A DNA stretch of 64,000 bases, from the NCBI GenBank assembly GCA_039920785.1, contig JBDSDB010000203.1, positions 1,042 through 65,041 on the forward strand, in the 5' to 3' direction. Positions 22,994-42,766 of the stretch are shown here, piece after piece (positions within the stretch are counted from its first letter, which is position 1; each line of letters begins with the position of its first letter). The DNA is from Gemmatimonadaceae bacterium. GTDB lineage: Bacteria; Gemmatimonadota; Gemmatimonadetes; Gemmatimonadales; Gemmatimonadaceae. The notes below the pieces were generated by a model. That model searched no databases, had not been told where the DNA came from, and saw only the letters and a list, made by a program, of their open reading frames with translations. A program made the translations under genes and the position numbers.

Positions 22994-23098
22994 CCAACGC
23001 GGTCGGCGTCTCGGCGGCTCCCTCCGCCTTACTCGACCCCGGATGGCCCGATGAATCGCCTCTTGCGCTGATGTACTTTGCATTATAAAGTTCTTTCC

Positions 23099-29176: not shown

Positions 29177-29185
29177 CGGAGAAAT

Positions 29186-29673
29186 CTAGCGCGCCGCGGC
29201 CGGAGCTGGCACGGCCGATGGGACAGGTGCGGTTGGTGCGGTGCAGCTCAACCCCGCCGGCCTCTTCGGATCCGCCTTCGCGTAACCGAGCCTCGGCGCG
29301 AGTTCGATGCCACCGAGCACCAACCCCCACAGCACGAGCAGCAGCGAGAGCACGTGGGCGCGCGCCGTGCGGTGGCGCCATGTCCACACACTGCTCCACA
29401 GCCCGCCCACCATCAACACGGCGATCGCGATGAGGTAACCGAACAGTCCGGCGCCACACTGGGCGGGGTACGGCCAGAAGAGGATGCCCACTCCGAGCGC
29501 CGTGGCGAGCGCCAGGCGAAGAAACGCACCCCACGTCTTCGTGGCGGTGCGCTCGGCGGCCACCTGTGCCTTCGCCGCCGGCGGCGCCCCCTTGGGCGCG
29601 GCGGGGATCAGCGCCGAGTCGGACATCGACTCCATCTGCTTGTCGATCTTCTTGAGCTGCGCGTCCCAATCAC

Positions 29674-33425: not shown

Positions 33426-33511
33426 GACAGCAAGCTATCCGCAGCGCGACCGCCAATGGAGGCGTCAGCGCTTCCGGACAAAGACTGACCCGTGCGGAAG
33501 TTGCCGGACTG

Positions 33512-33520
33512 TGCTATAAT
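33512..33520 (+). promoter_or_regulatory. extended -10 promoter element TGcTATAAT
   Basis: Perfect TATAAT (33515-33520) preceded by TG at 33512-33513. It lies about 95 nt upstream of the zinc-ribbon ORF. There is no good -35. Confidence 0.4.
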
Positions 33521-33613
33521 ATCGGCCCCGAATCATCGTTCTGCCGAGGTCTATCCAGGCAGGCCGGTGGACTCTCGACCCGCTTTCACTGCTCCACGAC
33601 GAAGTGGCGTGCA

Positions 33614-33973
33614 ATGGCGATCGCGATCTGTAGTCATTGTGGTGGTCTCGTCCTGATGCACGCCACCCTGTGCGGCCACTGCGGCCAGCGGGGCGAGGCG
33701 CGCCCGGAACGGCGGCGGACAAGCTCGTTCGGATCGTCGAAGCGGCGCATGCCGCCGGCGATGCGACGGCTCATCGTGGCTCTCGCTGTGGGTACGGGAG
33801 CGCTCGGGAGCCTGGCGCTGGCGCATCTCGCGCGGCCGGAGGGAGGCCGACGGGCGCTCGATCAGGCGACGCTCAGGTGTGAGAGAATTCGGCAGGTGGG
33901 CGAGCGAACACCAGGCCAACTCTCGGTCTGCCTTTCCCAGGTGGCCCGGCTTCGCGGGGCCGAACGTCCATGA
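33614..33973 (+). CDS. zinc-ribbon domain membrane protein (hypothetical)
   Basis: CSHCGG...N12...CGHCG double CxxC at the N-terminus, then a TM helix (LIVALAVGTGALGSLALA). GC3-rich. Confidence 0.45.
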   Translation: MAIAICSHCGGLVLMHATLCGHCGQRGEARPERRRTSSFGSSKRRMPPAMRRLIVALAVGTGALGSLALAHLARPEGGRRALDQATLRCERIRQVGERTPGQLSVCLSQVARLRGAERP

Positions 33974-34009
33974 AGGTGTCATCCGCGCTAGTCGGATGAG
34001 TCGAGGCGC

Positions 34010-34038
34010 TTGACTCGGCCGTGAGTCGGGGGTACGTT
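34010..34038 (+). promoter_or_regulatory. sigma-70-like promoter TTGACT-N17-TACGTT
   Basis: TTGACT at 34010-34015, a 17-nt spacer, then TACGTT at 34033-34038. It is the only good promoter match upstream of the cys operon leader. Confidence 0.4.
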
Positions 34039-34044
34039 GGGGGA

Positions 34045-34146
34045 ACTAATTGAAGCTCGTGGTGATTTGCCGCCTATTGCCGCCACGTTAAAGAAAGTGC
34101 TAAAACGCGAACGCGCCCGGCGGCCCTCTCGCTCGGGCACTTTTTG
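34045..34146 (+). ncRNA. candidate ~100-nt leader RNA / small RNA ending in a weak intrinsic terminator
   Basis: It lies downstream of the promoter above. Hairpin CGTGGTG (34058-64) / CGCCACG (34081-87) encloses a tandem TTGCCGCC repeat (34067 and 34077). GCCCGG...TCGGGC stem (34115-34138) followed by ACTTTTTGT. Confidence 0.3.
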
Positions 34147-34200
34147 TATACAGGCCATCGCCGGCCAGAACTCGATCATTTACCGCGATATCAGGCTCCA

Positions 34201-34359
34201 GTGATCACATCGTCGCATACGTCCGTTCCCGCAGCCCGTAGCGTCCGCGCGATTCGCGCGGCTAGCTGCACATGCGCCTGTATGCGTTCGGCGAACTCGA
34301 TTTGCTGTTGTCTGGAGAAGCGCGCACGAGCACGACGCGGCCGGGAATGGAGTCACTGA
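34201..34359 (+). CDS. candidate Cys-rich leader peptide of the cysteine operon (start GTG 34201 or ATG 34282)
   Basis: ...ASCTCACMRSANSICCCLEKRARARRGREWSH*. Six Cys codons lie within 15 codons, including TGC-TGT-TGT at 34303-34311. The stop TGA is at 34357-34359. Confidence 0.4.
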   Translation: MITSSHTSVPAARSVRAIRAASCTCACMRSANSICCCLEKRARARRGREWSH

Positions 34360-34405
34360 CGTAGCAGCACACGTCTCCACCCACACGGGAACCACACCCG
34401 GCCGC
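34337..34405 (+). promoter_or_regulatory. candidate antiterminator helix
   Basis: GCGGCCGGG (34337-34345) is the perfect complement of CCCGGCCGC (34397-34405). The latter shares 7 nt with the 5' arm of the terminator. Confidence 0.4.
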
Positions 34406-34427
34406 TCACGAGAGCGGCCGTTTTTCG
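34399..34427 (+). terminator. intrinsic terminator / attenuator directly upstream of osmC-cys operon
   Basis: CGGCCGCTC-acga-GAGCGGCCG (9 bp, tetraloop) followed by TTTTTCG. It lies 22 nt upstream of the ATG at 34448. Confidence 0.7.
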
Positions 34428-34447
34428 TTGTGCCCGCCGAATCGCAC

Positions 34448-34996
34448 ATGACTCCTCAGTTGCCGATCAAATCTATGTCCTCCACCAGCACCCCCGTTGT
34501 CGAGCAGGACGTTGCATCGCCACTGGATGGCGGCGCCTCGCGTCCGACGTCGACGACGGTGCATGTCTCATGGCGCGGAGAGCGTCGCTACGAGATCGGG
34601 CGGCCCGGCGGCCCCGCCGTCACGATCGACGCCGCGGGCGAGGCCGGGCTCGGACCCGTGGACACGATGCTCGGTGCGCTCGCTGCCTGCTCGGCGATCG
34701 ACGTGCTCGACTATCTCGCCAAGCGACGTACCCCAGCCGCCGGCCTCGACGTTCGCGTGGACGCGGAGCGAAGCGCCAGCGTGCCTCGACGCGTGCTGCG
34801 CGCGCGCCTGACAATCACCATCGACGGTAGCGGCATCGACACCGGCCACGCCGAGCGCGCGATCGCGCTCTCGTTCCAGACCTATTGCTCGGTGTCTGCG
34901 TCATTGGCGCCAGATCTGGTGATCGAATCGCAGCTCGTGCTGAACGGAGTGACGCAGCCCGTGGTCGTCCAGAGAGCAGTGGAGGCGAGCGCATGA
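34448..34996 (+). CDS. OsmC family peroxiredoxin-like protein
   Basis: [10 protein letters not shown] and [11 protein letters not shown] are the two conserved OsmC/Ohr cysteines. The start may instead be ATG 34475. Confidence 0.85.
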
Positions 34997-36885
34997 GCGT
35001 TGCACGTGGGACCGCACCGGTGAGCTCGCGACCGATCCGCTTCGACGAGGAAGGATTGCCTTTCGAGTCCGAGGAGAAGAACGAGTTCCAACGGATCGAC
35101 GATCCGGCCGAAGTCGAAGCGCGCATGGGGATCGTGATCGTCGGGCACGTCGATCATGGCAAGAGCACGATCATCGGGCGATTGCTCGCCGACACGGGTT
35201 CGCTGCCCGAGGGCCGCCTCGAACAGATCAAGGATCTCTGCGCCCGCACGGCGAAGCCATTCGAGTACGCCTTTCTGCTGGATGCGCTCAAGGACGAGCG
35301 CGCGCAGGGCATCACGATCGACGCGGCGCGCGTCTTCTTCCGCACGCCGAAGCGGCGCTACCTGATCCTCGATGCGCCCGGTCACGTCGAGTTCCTCAAG
35401 AACATGGTCACCGGCGCGGCGCGCGCCGAGGCGGCGCTGCTCGTGCTCGATGCCGGCGAAGGGATCCAGGAAAACACGCGCCGACACGCGTACCTGCTCT
35501 CCCTGCTCGGCGTGCGGCAGATCGCCGTGGTCGTCAACAAGATGGATCTCGTGGAAGGCAAGGAATCGGCGTTCGACGATTTCGCGCGCGACCTGACGAC
35601 GTTCCTCAAGAGCATCAACCTCGAACCGGCGGCGATCATCCCCGTGATCGGGCGCGATGGGGACAACCTCGCGATACGCTCGACGACGATGTCATGGTAC
35701 TCGGGACCGACCGTGCTCGAGACACTCGACGGTTTCCAGAGTCAGGGCGAGGCGGTCGACGGACCATTCCGCATGCCGGTGCAGTCCGTGTACAAGTTCA
35801 CCAACGATGGCGACGACCGGCGCATCGTCGCCGGGACGATCGAGAGCGGGCGCGTGAAGGTCGGCGATGAGGTGGTATTCCACCCGTCAGGCAAGCGCAC
35901 GCGCGTGAAGTCGCTCGAGGCGTTCAACCGGGTCGCGCCCGCGGTCGCCGGGGCCGGCGAGTCCACCGGATTCACCCTGGCGCAGCAGATCTACGTGACG
36001 CGCGGTGAGCTCGCGACGCTGGCGCACGAGCCGCAGCCCGTTGCGGCGACGCGCATCCGCTCCAGCGTGTTCTGGCTCGGAGCTCGGCCGCTCGAAGTCG
36101 GCCGCAATTACACGCTCAAGCTGGGCACGGCGCGCGTGTCCGCGCACCTCGAGAGCATCGAGCGCGTGCTCGACGCGTCGACGCTCGCGTCCGTGACGGG
36201 ACGGACCTCCGTGCTTCGCAACGAAGTCGCCGACTGCGTGCTCAAGCTCCGGCATCCCATCGCCTTCGATCGTGCCGCGGACCTTGCCGCGACGAGCCGA
36301 TTCGTGTTGGTGGACAACTTCAGCATCAGTGGTGGCGGCGTCGTGCGCGAGGCGCTCACAGGCTCGGACGTGCACCGAGCGCGCGCGCGCACGAGCACGT
36401 CCGCGCCGTTGCGGCCGAGCGTCCTCTGGCTGACCGGCGAGCGCGGCGCGGGCAAGAGCGCGCTCGCGCACTGGCTGGCGACCGACGCAGAACACGCGGG
36501 GTCGCGCGTGGAGCTCATCGACGACGACACCGTCGGCGAGTTGTTTCCCGCAGGCGGCTCCATCGCGGAACGCGAGCTGCGCGTGCGACGCCTGGCGTGG
36601 CTCGCGTCGCGGCTCGAGGCGCACGGCGCGGTCGTCGTCGTCGCGATCGACTCGCCGAGCGAGGAGGCACGTCGCTTCGCGAGGTCCGTCGCGCGCGATT
36701 TCGTCGAAGTGCATCTGACAGCCGCCTCGGACGTACTCGAAGAGCGCCGTGGCGCGCGCGCGATGCCCGAAGCGTATGAGGTACCCATTCAGCCCGAGCT
36801 GCGGCTCGACACGGGACGTTTGACACTGGAGGAAGCCGGCGCGGAAGTGCTCGCCTGGCTCGAGGAATGGAGCAGCAACTCATGA
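34993..36885 (+). CDS. cysN: sulfate adenylyltransferase subunit 1 (GTPase) fused to a divergent APS-kinase-like C-terminal domain
   Basis: ATGA overlap with the osmC stop. [14 protein letters not shown] and NKMD G-motifs. The C-terminal ~180 aa carry a P-loop ([10 protein letters not shown]) and AIDSP, but lack the canonical KGLY...FTG lid. Confidence 0.9.
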
Positions 36886-37814
36886 GTGCAACAACTACCG
36901 TGCACGCGCCGTCGAGCAAGCGCGCGAGCCGCATCGATCATCTCGATCAGCTCGAGCACCGCAGCGTACATCTCCTGCGCGAGGCATACGCGAGTTTTCC
37001 GCAGCTCGCGATGCTTTGGTCCATCGGCAAGGACAGTACGGTGCTCCTGTGGCTGGCGCGCAAGGCGTTCTTCGGCCACGTGCCGATGCCGCTCGTCCAC
37101 ATCGACACGGGCTACAAGATCCCCGAGATGATCCAGTACCGTGACCGGCTCGCGGCGGAGTGGCGCCTGACCGTCATCTACGGGCAGAACGAGGAAGCGC
37201 TCGCCAGCAAGCAGACGTTCCCGGATGGCAACGTCGACCGGCTCACCTGCTGCGGCAACCTCAAGACCGAGGCGCTGCGACGCACGCTCTCTGGCGAAGG
37301 GAAGCGGTATCGGTTCGACCACACGCTGGGCACGTACGTCGTGGACACCAATCGCGAGCCATTCACCGGTGTGATCGTCGGCGTGCGCGCGGACGAGGAG
37401 GGCAGCCGTTCCAAGGAGCGCTATTTCTCCCCGCGATCGGGTGAGAACAACTGGGACGTGGGCGATCAGCCCCCGGAGTTCTGGAATCAGTACGCCACCG
37501 AATTCGCGCCCGGTACGCACGTCCGCATCCATCCCCTGCTCGACTGGACGGAGCTCGACATCTGGGAGTACATCGAGCGCGAACGCATTCCGACCGTGGG
37601 TCTCTACTACGATCGTGGCGAGGGTGAGCGATTCCGCTCGCTCGGCTGCTGGCCGTGCACCAAGGCGGTGTCGTCGAGCGCGAGGAACGTCGGCGAGATC
37701 ATCGTGGAGCTGAAGAGCGGCAAGTTCTCGCACATCGCGGAGCGGGCCGGCCGCGCGCAGGACAAGGATGACGGAGGCGGTCTCGAGACGCTCCGCCGAG
37801 ATGGGTACATGTAG
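36882..37814 (+). CDS. cysD: sulfate adenylyltransferase subunit 2
   Basis: ATGA overlap with the cysN stop. [14 protein letters not shown]-loop, RADEE and WNQY...[15 protein letters not shown] motifs. Confidence 0.95.
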
Positions 37815-37883
37815 CTCGCAGACTGTTCGGCCGCTCGCATCGCACGCGCACGTCACGCCTCGCCTGTTCTCTCGGAGTCCACA

Positions 37884-38504
37884 GTGCCTCATTCGTCCCA
37901 CACCACGTCCGTCACGGTCGGCCAGGGCTCGCTGCCGGGCAGCGGCGCGCGCAGGGGATTCACCCTCTGGCTCACCGGACTCTCGGGCGCCGGCAAGTCC
38001 ACCATCGCCAGCGCGGTCGCCGACCGGCTGCGCGCCGAGGGCGCGGCGGTAGAGGTGCTGGATGGGGACGAGGTGCGCGAACATCTCTCCAAGGGACTCT
38101 CGTTCTCGCGCGAAGACCGCGACATCAATGTGCGGCGCATCGCGTACGTCGCGAAGCTGCTCTGCCGGAACGGGGTCGCCGTGATCACCGCGGCCATCTC
38201 GCCGTACCGTTCGACGCGCGACGAGGCACGGCGCGATATCGGTGATGGCTTCATCGAGGTGTACGTCAACGCCTCGCTGGACGAGTGCATTCGACGCGAC
38301 GTCAAAGGGCTGTATGAGAAGGCGCTCGCCGGCGCAATCACGACGTTCACGGGCGTGTCGGATCCGTACGAGGCACCGCTCGCGCCCGACGTCGAGGTCA
38401 ACACCGAGCGGGAGACGATCGACGAGAGCGTCGAGCGAGTGCTCGAGACGATCCGTGGCCGCGGGTTCCTGTCGTCCGCGCTGCAGTCCACGAGCGCCGC
38501 GTGA
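37884..38504 (+). CDS. cysC: adenylyl-sulfate (APS) kinase
   Basis: LWLTGLSGAGKSTIA P-loop, LDGDEVREHLSKGLSFSREDRD.NVRRI, AISPY and RDVKGLYEKA...FTGVSDPYE are all canonical. GTG start with GGAG upstream. Confidence 0.9.
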   Translation: MPHSSHTTSVTVGQGSLPGSGARRGFTLWLTGLSGAGKSTIASAVADRLRAEGAAVEVLDGDEVREHLSKGLSFSREDRDINVRRIAYVAKLLCRNGVAVITAAISPYRSTRDEARRDIGDGFIEVYVNASLDECIRRDVKGLYEKALAGAITTFTGVSDPYEAPLAPDVEVNTERETIDESVERVLETIRGRGFLSSALQSTSAA

Positions 38505-39262
38505 CCATGAGCTCTGCCTTGCGCCCTCTGCCGCTCACCGCCACCACGGAGCTTCTGACGCCGACTCGGCTTCGGGAGGAGGCCGCGCGCCTGCGTGAGC
38601 GGGGGCCCGAGGAGATCCTCGCGTGGACGCTGGCGTCGTTCCCGCGCCGGACGGCGGTGACGGTGAGCTTCGGCGGGCCGGGAGTGGCGCTCGCCTACAT
38701 GGCGAGCCAGATCGAGCCGTCCACACCCATCGTCTTCCTCGACACCAAGTTCCTCTTTCCCGAGACCTACGCGCTGCGCGACGAGCTCGTGAAGAAGTAC
38801 GCGCTGAACCTCGTCGAGTACGCGCCGCTGTCTGATCCGGGACCGCTCTACGAGACGGACACCGACGGCTGCTGCGCCATCCGCAAGGTGGAGCCGATGC
38901 AGCGCGCACTCGGCGACTTCGACGCCTGGGTGAGCGGCGTGCGACGTGACCAGGGACCGACCCGGGCGAACACCGAAGTGGTGGAGCTCCATGTCGCGAA
39001 CGGTCGCCCGCTTGCCAAGGTGTATCCGCTGGCGTACTGGAGCCGGAGCCAGATCTGGGGCTATCTGCTCGACATGGGGATTCCGTACAACCCGCTGCTC
39101 GACCAGGGTTATTCGAGCCTGGGTTGCTGGCCGTGCACGCGTAGGACCGGTGCCGGAGAGGACGAGCGCGCGGGCCGGTGGACCGGCACGGGCAAGACCG
39201 AGTGCGGATTGCACACCTTCACGTCGCCCGCTCTGCCCGCGACTCCAGGGAGCGGCGAATGA
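38501..39262 (+). CDS. cysH: adenylyl-sulfate (APS)/PAPS reductase, thioredoxin-dependent, Fe-S-cluster type
   Basis: ECGLH C-terminal catalytic motif, plus the CC (DGCCAIRK) and CxxC (GCWPCT) cysteines typical of [4Fe-4S] APS reductases. Confidence 0.9.
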   Translation: MTMSSALRPLPLTATTELLTPTRLREEAARLRERGPEEILAWTLASFPRRTAVTVSFGGPGVALAYMASQIEPSTPIVFLDTKFLFPETYALRDELVKKYALNLVEYAPLSDPGPLYETDTDGCCAIRKVEPMQRALGDFDAWVSGVRRDQGPTRANTEVVELHVANGRPLAKVYPLAYWSRSQIWGYLLDMGIPYNPLLDQGYSSLGCWPCTRRTGAGEDERAGRWTGTGKTECGLHTFTSPALPATPGSGE

Positions 39263-40023
39263 GCAGCATGCTGGTGAACCTCATCGTGGCCGGTCTCGTC
39301 GTCGGCTTCATGATCGGACTGACGGGCGTGGGCAGCGGTGCGCTGATGGCGCCGGTGCTACTGCTGCTCGGTATCCCGCCCGCGACCGTGGTCGGCAGTG
39401 ACCTGCTGTTCGGGCTCCTCACGAAGATCGTGGGCGTCGGTTCGCACGTGCAGCACAAGACGATCGCCTGGCGGTGGGTGTGGCTGATGGCGATTGGCAG
39501 CCTCCCCGGTGTGTTGATCGGGACGCGCCTCCTCGCTCACTTTGCCGGTGCGCCGAAGACGATCCGCGTCTGGATCGGCATCGTGCTCGTGCTCACGCCG
39601 ATCATTGCAGTCCTCATGGAGATCGCGCGCCGACGTGAGAAGGAGTGGGTCGAGAAGCTGCGCAGTCCGCGACCGGTGACGATCGCCCTCATCGGCGCGG
39701 CGATCGGCGTGACGGTCGGCGCGACGTCCGTGGGCAGCGGCAGCCTCGTCGACATGGCGCTCGTGCTCTTCTCACCGCTTTCCGGTGCGGTGCTCATCGG
39801 CACCGGGATCGCGCACGCGGTGCTCATCACCGGTGCGGGCGCGGCAGCGCACTGGAATCTCGGCAACGTCGATCCCGCGCTCGTCGGGCGGTTGCTGATC
39901 GGCTCCATCCCCGGCGTGCTGCTCGGAGGATGGGTCGCGCGGCGCTCGCGGCCGCACTACGTGCGCTGGGGCGCAACGACTCTCGTGCTACTGAGTGGCC
40001 TTACCCTTCTTTCTAGAGCCTGA
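39259..40023 (+). CDS. TauE/SafE family sulfite exporter-like membrane protein
   Basis: ATGA overlap with the cysH stop. About 8 TM helices. GLTGVGSGALMAP motif of the TauE/SafE (DUF81) family. Confidence 0.85.
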   Translation: MSSMLVNLIVAGLVVGFMIGLTGVGSGALMAPVLLLLGIPPATVVGSDLLFGLLTKIVGVGSHVQHKTIAWRWVWLMAIGSLPGVLIGTRLLAHFAGAPKTIRVWIGIVLVLTPIIAVLMEIARRREKEWVEKLRSPRPVTIALIGAAIGVTVGATSVGSGSLVDMALVLFSPLSGAVLIGTGIAHAVLITGAGAAAHWNLGNVDPALVGRLLIGSIPGVLLGGWVARRSRPHYVRWGATTLVLLSGLTLLSRA

Positions 40024-40026
40024 GAT

Positions 40027-41712
40027 ATGACTGGACCAACCGTGACGCCTCCCGCCGATCCGACCACCGAGCTGACGCCGGTGAAGGAATCTCCGGCACA
40101 GCGCGTCGAGCGCATCAAGCGCGAGAAGGCGCCGTGGTCGATCATGGACGACATCCGACGCTATTCGCGCGAGGGCTTCGCGTCGATTTCGAACGAGGAT
40201 CTCACCGTGCGATTTCGCGCGTGGGGGCTCTACACGCAGGGCGACGGACGCGGCACGCGCGGCGAGGAGATGCCCTTCTTCATGATGCGTGTGCGGACGC
40301 CGAACGGCTTCCTCACGTCCGACATGGTGCGGCGCATCTCCGACATCTCGGACAGGTACGCGCGCAGCAGCATCGACATCACGAACCGCGAGAACTTCCA
40401 GCTGCACTGGCTGCGCATCGAGGACATCCCAGCGATCTGGGACTCGCTCGCCGAAGTCGGGTGGACGAGCATGGGCGCGTGCGGCGACAACCCCCGTACC
40501 GTGACCGGCTGTCCGCTCGCCGGCGTCGAGCACGACGAGCTGATCGACGCGAGCCCGATCGCCGTGGCGGTGGACAAGTTCCTCAACGGCAACCCCGACT
40601 ACGCGAACCTGCCGCGCAAGTTCAAGATCACGATCACCGGATGTCAGAACTGGTGCTCGTATCCGGAGATCAACGACATCGGCGCGACGGCCGTGCGCCG
40701 CGCGGATGGTGTCGTCGGTTTCCACGTGCGCGTCGGCGGCGGCCTCTCCACCAAACCGCACCTCGCGGTGCTGCTCCCGGCCTTCGTGCATCCGCATCAG
40801 CTGCCGGAAGTCGTGAACGCCGTCACCGCGATCTTCCGCGATTCCGACGAGCTGCGCGTCAATCGCACCAAGGCGCGCATGAAGTTCCTGTTCGTGACCC
40901 ACGGGTGGACGGCCGACAAGTTCCTCGCAGAGATCGAGCGCCGCATCGGCTACACGCTCGAGGCGCCAGCCGAGGAGAACGCGCCGGAAGGACATTACCG
41001 TGATCACATCGGCGTGCATCCGCAGAAGCAGCCCGGCCTCAGCTACGCCGGCTACTCCGTCGTGTCGGGGCGCATCTCCACCGAGCAGTTGCGTGGACTG
41101 GCGACGATCGCTGACGAGTTCGGCGACGGCCAGCTGCGGCTCAGCGCGACGCAGAACATCCTGATCACGAACGTTCCCACGGAGCGCACGGCCGAGTTGG
41201 TCGTGCGGAGCCGCGCGCTCGGCGTCGCCCTCGACGGCTCGGCATTCCAGCGCGGCACCGCGTCGTGCACCGGCAGTGAGTACTGCAAGCTGGCGCTCAC
41301 CGAGACGAAGCTGTTCAGCATCCGGCTCGCCCAGGAGCTCGAGGATCGCCTCCCGGGCTTCGCGGACACGGTGAAGCTGCACATTGCCGGCTGCCCGAAC
41401 TCGTGCGGCCAGCATCCCATCGCCGACGTCGGCCTGCAGGGCGTGCTGCTCAACCAGGGCGGCGTCCAGGTGGAAGGATTCGACTTCTTCGTCGGCGGAG
41501 GACTCGGCAGGAACAGCGCGCTCGGTCATCGCGTGGGGTTCCGCGCCGCAGCGGACGAGGTGCCCAACGCTCTCGAGCGACTCTTCGAAGCATACGTGGC
41601 TGCGAAGAGTGATGGCGAGACCATCCGGTCCTGGACGGGCCGCCTGGGTGATGCGGGGGTGAAAGCAATTCTCGCGAACGCGCAGCCGGTTGCCGCGGGC
41701 TCGGCGTCATGA
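40027..41712 (+). CDS. sir: ferredoxin-dependent sulfite reductase (NirA/Sir family, siroheme-[4Fe-4S])
   Basis: Two nitrite/sulfite reductase repeats. CTGSEYCKLA and GCPNSCGQH cluster/siroheme cysteines. Confidence 0.9.
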   Translation: MTGPTVTPPADPTTELTPVKESPAQRVERIKREKAPWSIMDDIRRYSREGFASISNEDLTVRFRAWGLYTQGDGRGTRGEEMPFFMMRVRTPNGFLTSDMVRRISDISDRYARSSIDITNRENFQLHWLRIEDIPAIWDSLAEVGWTSMGACGDNPRTVTGCPLAGVEHDELIDASPIAVAVDKFLNGNPDYANLPRKFKITITGCQNWCSYPEINDIGATAVRRADGVVGFHVRVGGGLSTKPHLAVLLPAFVHPHQLPEVVNAVTAIFRDSDELRVNRTKARMKFLFVTHGWTADKFLAEIERRIGYTLEAPAEENAPEGHYRDHIGVHPQKQPGLSYAGYSVVSGRISTEQLRGLATIADEFGDGQLRLSATQNILITNVPTERTAELVVRSRALGVALDGSAFQRGTASCTGSEYCKLALTETKLFSIRLAQELEDRLPGFADTVKLHIAGCPNSCGQHPIADVGLQGVLLNQGGVQVEGFDFFVGGGLGRNSALGHRVGFRAAADEVPNALERLFEAYVAAKSDGETIRSWTGRLGDAGVKAILANAQPVAAGSAS

Positions 41713-41755
41713 CACCACCACTCCGTCATCGCGATGGCGGAACAGGGAGGAGCGA

Positions 41756-42766
41756 GTGAGCACATTCGTACAGCGGGAAGTGGCGCACGGGATCGGCGCG
41801 GTCATCGAGGGTCCCGTGGTGCCTGGCAATCGCGTGGACGCCGTGATCGGGCGGACGCCGGTCGTGCGCCTGGAGCGCGTGGTCACGCCCGCCATGGCCG
41901 AGGTGTGGATCAAGCTCGAGGGCGCCAATCCGGGCGGTTCGATCAAGGACCGAACGGCCCTGGGAATGATCCTCGACGCCGAAGCGCGCGGCGTACTCAA
42001 GCCCGGGGATACGATCGTCGAACCGACGTCGGGCAACACCGGGATCGGGTTGGCGCAGGTGGCGTCAGCGCGCGGGTATCGGCTCATCCTCTGCCTGCCC
42101 GATTCGGCGAGCGACGAACGCAAGCGAACATTGGAGGCCTACGGGGCGGAGCTGGTGCTGACCGACCCGGAGCGGCGCATGTTGGCGGCGATCGAAGCGG
42201 CTGAACAGATCCGCGACGAAACGGGCGCGTGGCTCCCCAATCAGTTCTCGAATCCGGCGAACCCTCGCGTGCACTACGAGACGACGGCGCCGGAGCTCTG
42301 GTCGCAAATGGATGGCCGGATCGACGCGTTCGTGTACGGCTCCGGGACGGGTGGCACGATCACCGGCGTGGGTCGGTTCCTCAAGGAGCGGAGTCCTGAC
42401 ACCCTGGTGGTGGCGGTGGAACCTGCTCGTTCGCCCGTGCTATCGGGCGGTGAGCGTGGGCAGCACCAGTTCCAGGGGATGGGGCCCGGCTTCGTGCCGG
42501 ACAACTTCGATCGCTCGGTGGTGGATCGGGTGATCCCGGTGTGGGAAGAGGACGCCTTTCCTGTCGCGCGGCGGCTGGCGAAGGAGGAGGGACTGTTCGT
42601 GGGGATGTCGAGTGGGGCGATCGCGTTTGCCGCCTTACAGGTGGCGACGACGCTCGGTCCGGGAAAGCGGGTGGCGATGATCGCGCCGGACACCGGGGCG
42701 CGATACCTGACCACGGTGCTGTTCTCCAACGAAGACACGCCCGATCCCGCGCACGGCGTGCTGTGA
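41756..42766 (+). CDS. cysK: cysteine synthase A (O-acetylserine sulfhydrylase)
   Basis: GTG at 41756 is preceded by GGGAGGAG. NPGGSIKDR (PLP lysine), TSGNTGIGLA and GTGGTITG motifs. Confidence 0.9.
   Translation: MSTFVQREVAHGIGAVIEGPVVPGNRVDAVIGRTPVVRLERVVTPAMAEVWIKLEGANPGGSIKDRTALGMILDAEARGVLKPGDTIVEPTSGNTGIGLAQVASARGYRLILCLPDSASDERKRTLEAYGAELVLTDPERRMLAAIEAAEQIRDETGAWLPNQFSNPANPRVHYETTAPELWSQMDGRIDAFVYGSGTGGTITGVGRFLKERSPDTLVVAVEPARSPVLSGGERGQHQFQGMGPGFVPDNFDRSVVDRVIPVWEEDAFPVARRLAKEEGLFVGMSSGAIAFAALQVATTLGPGKRVAMIAPDTGARYLTTVLFSNEDTPDPAHGVL

Follow-up and report, generated by a model that had tools for sequence, protein, structure and literature searches.

The stretch of DNA analysed here (the window) comprises 64,000 nucleotides (nt) from a Gemmatimonadaceae bacterium (GenBank assembly GCA_039920785.1, contig JBDSDB010000203.1, positions 1,042 to 65,041 of the forward strand). 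It contains a sulfate-to-cysteine operon, and the leader of this operon, about 400 bases in length, appears to hold two terminator-based sensors in series: a riboswitch for S-adenosylmethionine (SAM) of the known SAM-II type, and a conserved mini-gene rich in cysteine (Cys) codons. The features of the locus are given below; counts refer to the 35 complete homologous leaders described further on.

34010 to 34038, + strand: promoter, with -35 element TTGACT (34010-34015), -10 element TACGTT (34033-34038) and a 17-nt spacer, recognized by its conservation in alignment
34049 to 34120, + strand: SAM-II riboswitch aptamer (Rfam RF00521, SAM_alpha), scoring 39.2 bits where the gathering score is 36, with E=2.5e-5 for the window as a whole
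34115 to 34145, + strand: terminator T1, the expression platform of the riboswitch, with the stem GCCCGGCG / CGC(T)CGGGC (34115-34138, one bulge), then AC and TTTTT (34141-34145), from folding and conservation
34201 to 34359, + strand: leader open reading frame (ORF) of 52 codons from GTG to TGA, VITSSHTSVPAARSVRAIRAASCTCACMRSANSICCCLEKRARARRGREWSH, its frame open in the homologs
34245 to 34261, + strand: hairpin H1, CCGCGCG-ATT-CGCGCGG, inside the ORF, -12.7 kcal/mol
34267 to 34281, + strand: first Cys cluster, TGC-ACA-TGC-GCC-TGT (C.C.C; C.C.CMC in most relatives), from the codon columns
34303 to 34311, + strand: Cys-Cys-Cys run TGC-TGT-TGT, the proposed ribosome stall site, Cys in 35 of 35
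34337 to 34345, + strand: 5' strand of the proposed antiterminator, the 9-mer GCGGCCGGG (segment 2), inside the invariant block CGCGGCCGGGA (34336-34346), codons Arg-Gly-Arg
34357 to 34359, + strand: stop codon TGA of the leader ORF, invariant in 35 of 35
34397 to 34405, + strand: 3' strand of the proposed antiterminator, the 9-mer CCCGGCCGC (segment 3), sharing 7 nt with the 5' arm of T2
34399 to 34425, + strand: intrinsic terminator T2, CGGCCGCTC-ACGA-GAGCGGCCG (hairpin 34399-34420, 9-bp stem, 4-nt loop), then TTTTT (U tract 34421-34425), from a terminator scan
34448 to 42766, + strand: regulated operon of osmC-like, cysN/APS-kinase-like (APS, adenosine 5'-phosphosulfate), cysD, cysC, cysH, tauE, sulfite reductase and cysK-like genes, from Pfam domains

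An earlier, sequence-only reading of this DNA had named the downstream genes as an osmC-cysNDCH-tauE-sir-cysK operon, and the Pfam domains agree. The NCBI start of the osmC-like gene is ATG 34475, and the last gene encodes a cysK-like cysteine synthase, a pyridoxal phosphate enzyme by Pfam. In an alignment of seven genomes, CGCTTGAC and TA.GTT are invariant in unconserved surroundings, the -10 element reading TAGGTT in the relatives, and the block 34010-34038 is the sole conserved promoter-like block of the whole intergenic region. Transcription probably starts near 34045. No conserved promoter-like block lies between T2 and the first gene in the same alignment, and the operon must therefore be transcribed through both T1 and T2.

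Homologous leaders were collected from six Gemmatimonadaceae genomes (L001-L006), retrieved by the OsmC protein, and from 44 metagenome loci, retrieved with a probe that consisted only of the 3' half of the aptamer and the linker and was thus blind to the features of the Cys leader. Complete and non-redundant leaders, that of the window included, numbered 35, all of them from Gemmatimonadaceae-like soil sequences. The ORF start, the Cys-Cys-Cys run, a second Cys cluster, the codons CGC-GGC-CGG, the TGA stop and the T2 terminator with its invariant arms are present in every one. Two further loci found through OsmC homologs (L052 and L053) have a gene order identical to that of the window operon and show the same features with identical invariant 9-mers. 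Every judgeable leader of this operon has the ORF, the Cys run, the 9-mer and T2. A comparison of orthologs had been proposed in the sequence-only reading as a check on its Cys-codon ORF and complementary 9-mers; both are kept in 35 of 35.

The first sensor had been missed by that reading. A SAM-II riboswitch with its terminator T1 lies between the promoter and the ORF, and its presence changes the regulatory logic of the leader. Rfam thresholding covered the window and L001-L006, and all seven sequences lie above the gathering score (40.0-41.9 bits in the six genomes); the other leaders were recovered through the aptamer 3' half as scan anchor. The cmscan alignment contains all core blocks of SAM-II (GAUUUG, UUGC, ACGUUAAA and GCUAAA) together with the 6-bp helix P1, in which CGTGG 34058-34062 pairs with CCACG 34083-34087, and the aptamer core is invariant across the leader family (alignment A1). 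Rfam at E up to 10 over 33800-34600 gave nothing credible beyond SAM-II. T1 folds at -15.2 kcal/mol and is kept in all related leaders. Two folds of this region are nearly isoenergetic, one with aptamer P1 and T1 (-30.6 kcal/mol) and one with the GCCGCC of the aptamer paired to the T1 arm GGCGGC (-30.5 kcal/mol); on these energies, the alternative GCCGCC/GGCGGC pairing is a plausible SAM-off switch.

The same aptamer and terminator are found without the Cys leader directly before an aminotransferase class I/II gene (L009, L038) and directly before a MetH-like gene with a homocysteine S-methyltransferase-like N-terminus (L018). Because SAM-II with T1 occurs alone before other genes, it is a self-contained riboswitch, and these occurrences point to a small SAM-II regulon of methionine-related genes in these soil bacteria. 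Aptamer with T1 and ORF with T2 are separate and separable units, placed in one transcript before one operon under a single conserved promoter. Elsewhere, at L046:745-1150 (oriented +), an ATP-grasp-family gene is preceded by SAM-II and T1, then by another kind of leader, about 170 nt long, and then by a second terminator (GGCCCTCTCCCGCGAGAGGGCC followed by a T-rich stretch); one frame there gives a 37-aa ORF, MFQPRSRVRHLAYRHCHRLSMRRVGRVFARARCADG, that contains two Cys. Possibly this is a further leader of the two-stage kind. The U tract of T1 (window 34141-34152) is followed by GTATACA, with the palindromic core GTATAC, in most relatives, and by GTATGCA or GCATGCA in some.

The second, probable sensor is the leader ORF. 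The codons and positions on which the sequence-only reading had built its Cys leader peptide all match the sequence (TGC 34267, TGC 34273, TGT 34279, ATG 34282, TGC-TGT-TGT 34303-34311, TGA 34357-34359). The start that it favoured, ATG 34282 with a peptide of 25 aa, has to be given up: this codon is absent in three of the 35 leaders (L002, L028, L035), and because a GTG or ATG is present farther upstream in all of them, the GTG frame with a peptide of about 50 aa fits better. A start codon stands 33-34 codons before the Cys run in 33 leaders (GTG in 32, ATG in one), and the other two have ATG at -30; in several relatives, a stop codon precedes the GTG by three codons. This frame is open in 35 of 35, whereas the other two sense frames are open in 6 and 14; L016 carries a further in-frame TGA ahead of the invariant one. 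All indels inside the ORF frame are of 3 nt (alignments A1/A2), and indels of 1, 2 and 4 nt occur in the pre-ORF spacer and in the stretch after the stop. The first 20 or so codons are unconserved, the N-terminal half of the ORF varies freely, and the flanking spacers do so too.

Conservation is concentrated on the Cys codons. Codon columns 24 and 26 of the first cluster encode Cys in 34 of 35 leaders each and column 28 in 27, and the first codon of the Cys run switches synonymously (TGC in 19, TGT in 16) while the other two are invariant TGT; several other codons of the ORF vary at position 3 only. The window has a single TGY-TGY-TGY on its + strand. In its long ORFs, 0.93% of the residues are Cys, which gives a P of about 1e-5 for six Cys in 52 codons. 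Peptides of this family have at least six Cys per approximately 50 codons, and some relatives have more. A comparison of synonymous with non-synonymous differences in all six frames detected no purifying selection at the amino-acid level, and no frame stands out; the equal ratio is uninformative for translation, though it is the pattern expected of a leader peptide. A profile search of 5.8 billion proteins returned only four matches to the leader peptide, all from the same leader family. An open frame with fixed start, stop and Cys codons and a free N-terminal half would be the pattern of a regulatory leader peptide, not of a functional small protein.

Inside the ORF, the cells of hairpin H1 are 98% paired across 29 aligned sequences, and two of its six pairs have changed on both sides; H1 is possibly a transcription pause hairpin. 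Two other reading frames were considered and rejected. A TTG start at 34144, given in the ORF listing, shares the frame in only part of the relatives, and stop codons cut it off in others. An ORF of 89 aa on the minus strand (34180-34449) would have to cross T2 and a spacer that changes its length by non-multiples of 3.

The complementarity on which the proposed attenuator depends had also been described correctly: GCGGCCGGG at 34337-34345 is perfectly complementary to CCCGGCCGC at 34397-34405, and the hairpin 34399-34420 is followed by TTTTT. The codons CGC GGC CGG are identical in 35 of 35 leaders, all three wobble bases included, while neighbouring codons vary. Their position is equally constant, segment 2 starting 25 nt after the Cys run in 33 of the 35 and ending 11 nt before the stop in 34. 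Segments 2 and 3 form nine G-C pairs with a duplex energy of -20.7 kcal/mol, and the domain 34337-34405 folds at -31.6 kcal/mol, compared with -18.6 for T2. When the upstream 190 nt were dinucleotide-shuffled 5000 times, 0.7% of the shuffles had a perfect complement of at least 9 nt to the flank or arm of the terminator. Segment 3 is invariant in 29 of 29 aligned sequences.

T2 was the only terminator-like site that the terminator scan found in 33500-35000. It lies 22-130 nt from the variable osmC starts and does not overlap a ribosome-binding site. The covariation check named in the sequence-only reading showed this terminator to be 100% paired in 29 sequences, with a compensatory switch of the loop-closing pair from C-G (18) to U-A (10); for the antiterminator it was uninformative, because the helix is invariant, and the frozen wobble bases of segment 2 and the rarity of such a complement in shuffles lend it indirect support. 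In many relatives, T2 is followed by TTTTTTGTAT. A well-conserved block at 34375-34396, between the leader stop and T2, has the consensus CUCCACCCACACGGGA with a nearly invariant CGGG core, and its GGG can pair with CCC 34397-34399 in RNAalifold. A diverged Cys leader was detected at L045:4240-4412, behind a SAM-II aptamer and a weak T1. Its ORF, MRVHTQPAFPACIAAARALCLCAPQCMCALTCEWPGRPRDRV, has six Cys in 42 codons and no triple run; the leader shows an 8-bp GUGGCCGG/CCGGCCGC pairing and the same T2 stem, and the contig ends before any U tract and regulated gene.

Folding of the two conformers had also been named in advance by the sequence-only reading. Forcing the antiterminator costs 0-7 kcal/mol relative to the minimum free energy structure in 35 of 35 leaders, and in six the antiterminator is itself that structure; on the complete transcript, T2 is favoured. 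Switch-like behaviour appears in calculations on the nascent transcript ending at segment 3, where the antiterminator forms in 31 of 35 sequences without any ribosome and in 30 when a ribosome occupies the Cys run; a ribosome placed at the stop codon leaves only four above 0.5 (0.50-0.55). Once formed, the antiterminator leaves no more than 2 nt of the T2 5' arm unpaired for nucleation of the hairpin. Ribosome-masked folding of the full leader at equilibrium was set aside as a test of state: it does not discriminate, because T2 prevails nearly everywhere, and only the nascent-transcript calculation behaves like a switch. Two further candidate pairings were discarded, one of the Cys run with the 9-mer in RNAalifold, which relies largely on G-U pairs, and a GGAG/CUCC helix around the stop codon, which breaks in some subfamilies (A2, by eye).

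A SAM-II riboswitch in tandem with a Cys leader-peptide transcription attenuator is probably the best explanation of this leader, and we hold it with moderate confidence. The core of the sequence-only proposal, a Cys leader-peptide attenuator, survives in it (frame, start, stop, Cys run, 9-mer and T2 are kept in 35 of 35), with a corrected start codon and with the riboswitch added. One promoter would feed a leader with two independent premature-termination switches in series. Binding of SAM to the aptamer would lock P1 and the pseudoknot, so that GCCGCC could not hold the 5' arm of T1; T1 would then form and transcription would stop. Transcripts that pass T1 would carry the 52-codon Cys ORF. 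With ample Cys-tRNA(Cys), the ribosome would follow RNA polymerase through GCGGCCGGG to the stop codon, this block would stay unpaired, T2 would form and the operon would be off. With scarce Cys-tRNA(Cys), the ribosome would stall on the Cys codons, at least 25 nt upstream of GCGGCCGGG; the free GCGGCCGGG could then capture the emerging CCCGGCCGC and sequester 7 of the 9 nt of the T2 5' arm, which would allow read-through into osmC-cysNDCH-tauE-sir-cysK. Only when SAM and cysteine are both low would the operon be fully expressed, and the two effects would be multiplicative if each switch is leaky.

Several observations weigh against this explanation. All leaders belong to one clade: OsmC homologs are at least 70% identical among the matches listed, and an OsmC homolog search with two contig look-ups for more diverged leaders found none, the 9-mers of L052 and L053 being unchanged. 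Covariation in the antiterminator is therefore not obtainable from relatives so close, and its nine pairs, invariant in 29 of 29 sequences, show zero covariation for or against it. At equilibrium, the finished transcript prefers T2 in most sequences wherever the ribosome sits (mean P about 0.76-0.95), and any switching would therefore have to rely on kinetics, as it does in classical attenuators. Of the 9-mer, whose end lies 11 nt upstream of the stop, a ribosome held at the stop codon masks only about 4 nt. The antiterminator is predicted without any ribosome, unlike in the Escherichia coli trp leader, and no protector (1:2) helix common to the leaders emerged, the upstream partners predicted for the 9-mer differing between sequences. 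Read-through may therefore be the default when the leader is untranslated. At about 50 codons, the ORF is long by the standard of classical leader peptides. In 34 of 35 leaders the antisense frame is open as well, because it mirrors a sense frame that avoids TTA, CTA and TCA. Finally, no Shine-Dalgarno or other recognisable initiation signal was found before the GTG. The sequence-only reading had listed the missing Shine-Dalgarno as a weak point; none is indeed visible, and this is not a real weakness, because many window genes with unambiguous starts lack one too, such as those for sulfite reductase (40027) and aldehyde dehydrogenase (29176).

Some of these points would also suit an element made of RNA alone. 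Here, 34150-34425 would be a second, undescribed leader RNA that binds a ligand or protein and uses T2 as its platform, the frame and Cys codons being incidental to the motifs UGCUGUUGU, GCGCGUGUAUGUGU, CGCGGCCGGGA and ACGGGA. Several blocks are invariant at all three codon positions, the synonymous to non-synonymous ratio is equal in all six frames, the antisense frame is open, no initiation signal is visible, and SAM-II aptamers often stand in tandem with a second riboswitch (PMC9481103). However, Rfam rises above noise nowhere in 34150-34430, even at E up to 10, the whole leader folds no better than shuffles (z = -0.19), and RNAalifold shows no covarying aptamer-like structure beyond H1 and T2. 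An RNA-only element also leaves unexplained the conserved start, the invariant stop, the indels in multiples of three, the synonymous TGC/TGT switch and the enrichment of just that codon which matches the end product of the operon. It is accordingly considered unlikely.

The ORF might instead encode a small Cys-rich protein with a function of its own, such as the binding of metal or sulfur, that is controlled by SAM-II, with T2 as its own terminator and the operon expressed in some other way. A conserved ORF of about 50 aa with at least six Cys and a basic C-terminus, called as a gene four times by metagenome gene callers, would agree with this. The absence of purifying selection on the amino-acid sequence, the unconserved N-terminal half, and the coincidence of the conserved C-terminal residues with nucleotide-invariant RNA blocks speak otherwise, as do the lack of a conserved promoter between T2 and osmC and the lack of relatives outside the leader family in the profile search; this is the most improbable of the explanations weighed here. 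Translation of the Cys ORF could also regulate the operon without the proposed antiterminator, through Rho-dependent polarity, mRNA stability or translation of osmC, and the conservation of the 9-mer would then have some other cause. With its U tract and a compensatory change, T2 is a canonical intrinsic terminator, its distance from the osmC starts leaves the ribosome-binding site free, and the 9-mer is an exact, wobble-invariant complement of the T2 arm at constant spacing from both the Cys run and the stop. These features make such a route quite improbable, even with the missing covariation of the antiterminator, the preference of equilibrium folding for T2 whatever the ribosome position, and the precedent of mycobacterial Cys ORFs that act on translation and not on termination.

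Other observations concern the neighbourhood of the leader. The CysN-like GTPase (34885-36885) has a C-terminal APS-kinase-like domain with a weaker Pfam match (63 bits), and a separate full CysC (37884-38504) is encoded two genes after this CysN/APS-kinase-like fusion. The first gene of the operon encodes an OsmC-family redox protein with a low-complexity N-terminus. Between a LarE/NAD-synthase-like gene and the promoter, overlapping ORFs without Pfam match occupy 33614-33973 (+) and 33551-33982 (-); the + frame of 33614-33973 appears common to L001 and L006 (C-terminal ...CDSIRE.GEE...), as an unannotated small gene or a conserved region. Throughout the window, a Shine-Dalgarno-like sequence is missing before many unambiguous starts, e.g. 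40007-40029, 29177-29196 (-) and 23052-23074, which suggests largely Shine-Dalgarno-independent initiation in this lineage. A conserved GTG-initiated ORF without Shine-Dalgarno offers a handle on translation start there.

Gemmatimonadota are abundant soil bacteria whose gene regulation is almost unstudied. If the tandem explanation is true, both end products of sulfur assimilation would be read by one short leader, cysteine as charged tRNA and methionine/SAM as metabolite, in an element that is compact (about 380 nt) and modular. Classical terminator-based leader-peptide attenuation would likewise be extended to cysteine and to Gemmatimonadota.

The Cys leader resembles the classical leader-peptide attenuators (E. 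coli trpL, hisL, pheL, thrL and ilvL; Actinobacterial trp and ilvB) in its 5' leader ORF rich in codons for the end product, in the intrinsic terminator between this ORF and the first gene, in an alternative helix that consumes the 5' arm of the terminator, and in a stop codon near the antiterminator strand, where the position of the ribosome would decide the fold. It differs from them in the amino acid sensed, which would be cysteine, and in its length of about 50 aa compared with 14-30. Its proposed antiterminator has a 5' strand placed within the ORF and ahead of the stop, the leaders folded here gave no convincing 1:2 protector helix, and its host belongs to the Gemmatimonadota and shows no Shine-Dalgarno.

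Cysteine leader peptides were predicted in Actinobacteria in 2005, without terminators (PMC1262725). The view of the sequence-only reading that Cys-codon attenuators exist only as sporadic predictions is outdated: experiments in Mycobacterium smegmatis have demonstrated polycysteine leaderless small ORFs that act as attenuators, the 'Cys ribulon' (Canestrari et al. 2020, 10.1101/834739), which are also cited in PMC13236596. The present leader shares with them a run of three or more Cys codons upstream of operons for cysteine or sulfur metabolism and, as proposed here, the relief of repression by stalling on Cys codons when cysteine is scarce. The mycobacterial ORFs start at the transcription start and unmask a downstream ribosome-binding site, a translational control, whereas in the window about 155 nt of transcript, with a riboswitch and T1, come before the ORF, and a canonical intrinsic terminator comes after it. 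The two are not similar in sequence, and the alignment showed no conserved pairing to a ribosome-binding site after the leader ORF. Being neither leaderless nor dependent on sequestration of the ribosome-binding site, the leader is therefore not a member of the mycobacterial class, though the stalling principle would be the same. No description of a terminator-type Cys attenuator was found in the literature searched.

SAM-II aptamers are typically coupled to terminators consisting of a hairpin and a U tract (PMC2258182). The aptamer in the window follows this pattern, and like others of its class it precedes sulfur and methionine genes. In contrast to the usual SAM-II, it occurs in Gemmatimonadaceae and not in Alpha- or Betaproteobacteria or Bacteroidota, it precedes a sulfate-assimilation/cysteine operon and not metA, metX or metZ, and about 310-350 nt, containing a proposed second regulator, separate it from the first gene. 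A full-text literature search for SAM-II or riboswitches in Gemmatimonadetes found nothing relevant.

SAM-II is common as the first unit of tandem riboswitches (PMC9481103). In the tandem gates described there (Bacillus clausii metE with SAM-I and adenosylcobalamin riboswitches; SAM-II/SAM-V; a guanosine tetraphosphate (ppGpp) riboswitch with a T-box), two sensors each have their own terminator and each can veto expression, in a NOR-like or multiplicative manner, as would be the case here. That review of tandem architectures (PMC9481103) has no leader-peptide partner, with 0 occurrences of 'leader peptide' or 'attenuat', and no description of SAM-II paired with a Cys leader peptide was found in the literature searched. 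The present leader differs from those gates in its second sensor, which would be a ribosome reading Cys codons and not an aptamer or T-box. The closest mixed case known is the Salmonella mgtA leader, in which Mg2+ sensing and the proline-codon ORF mgtL both bear on one terminator decision. There is about an even chance that the leader described here is the first natural one to join a metabolite riboswitch (SAM-II) in series with a ribosome-mediated leader-peptide attenuator, as independent terminator switches permitting expression only when both SAM and charged tRNA(Cys) are low, and also the first terminator-type cysteine attenuator, in the little-studied Gemmatimonadota. If so, the ribosome as sensor would be a new class of partner among tandem riboswitch logic gates.

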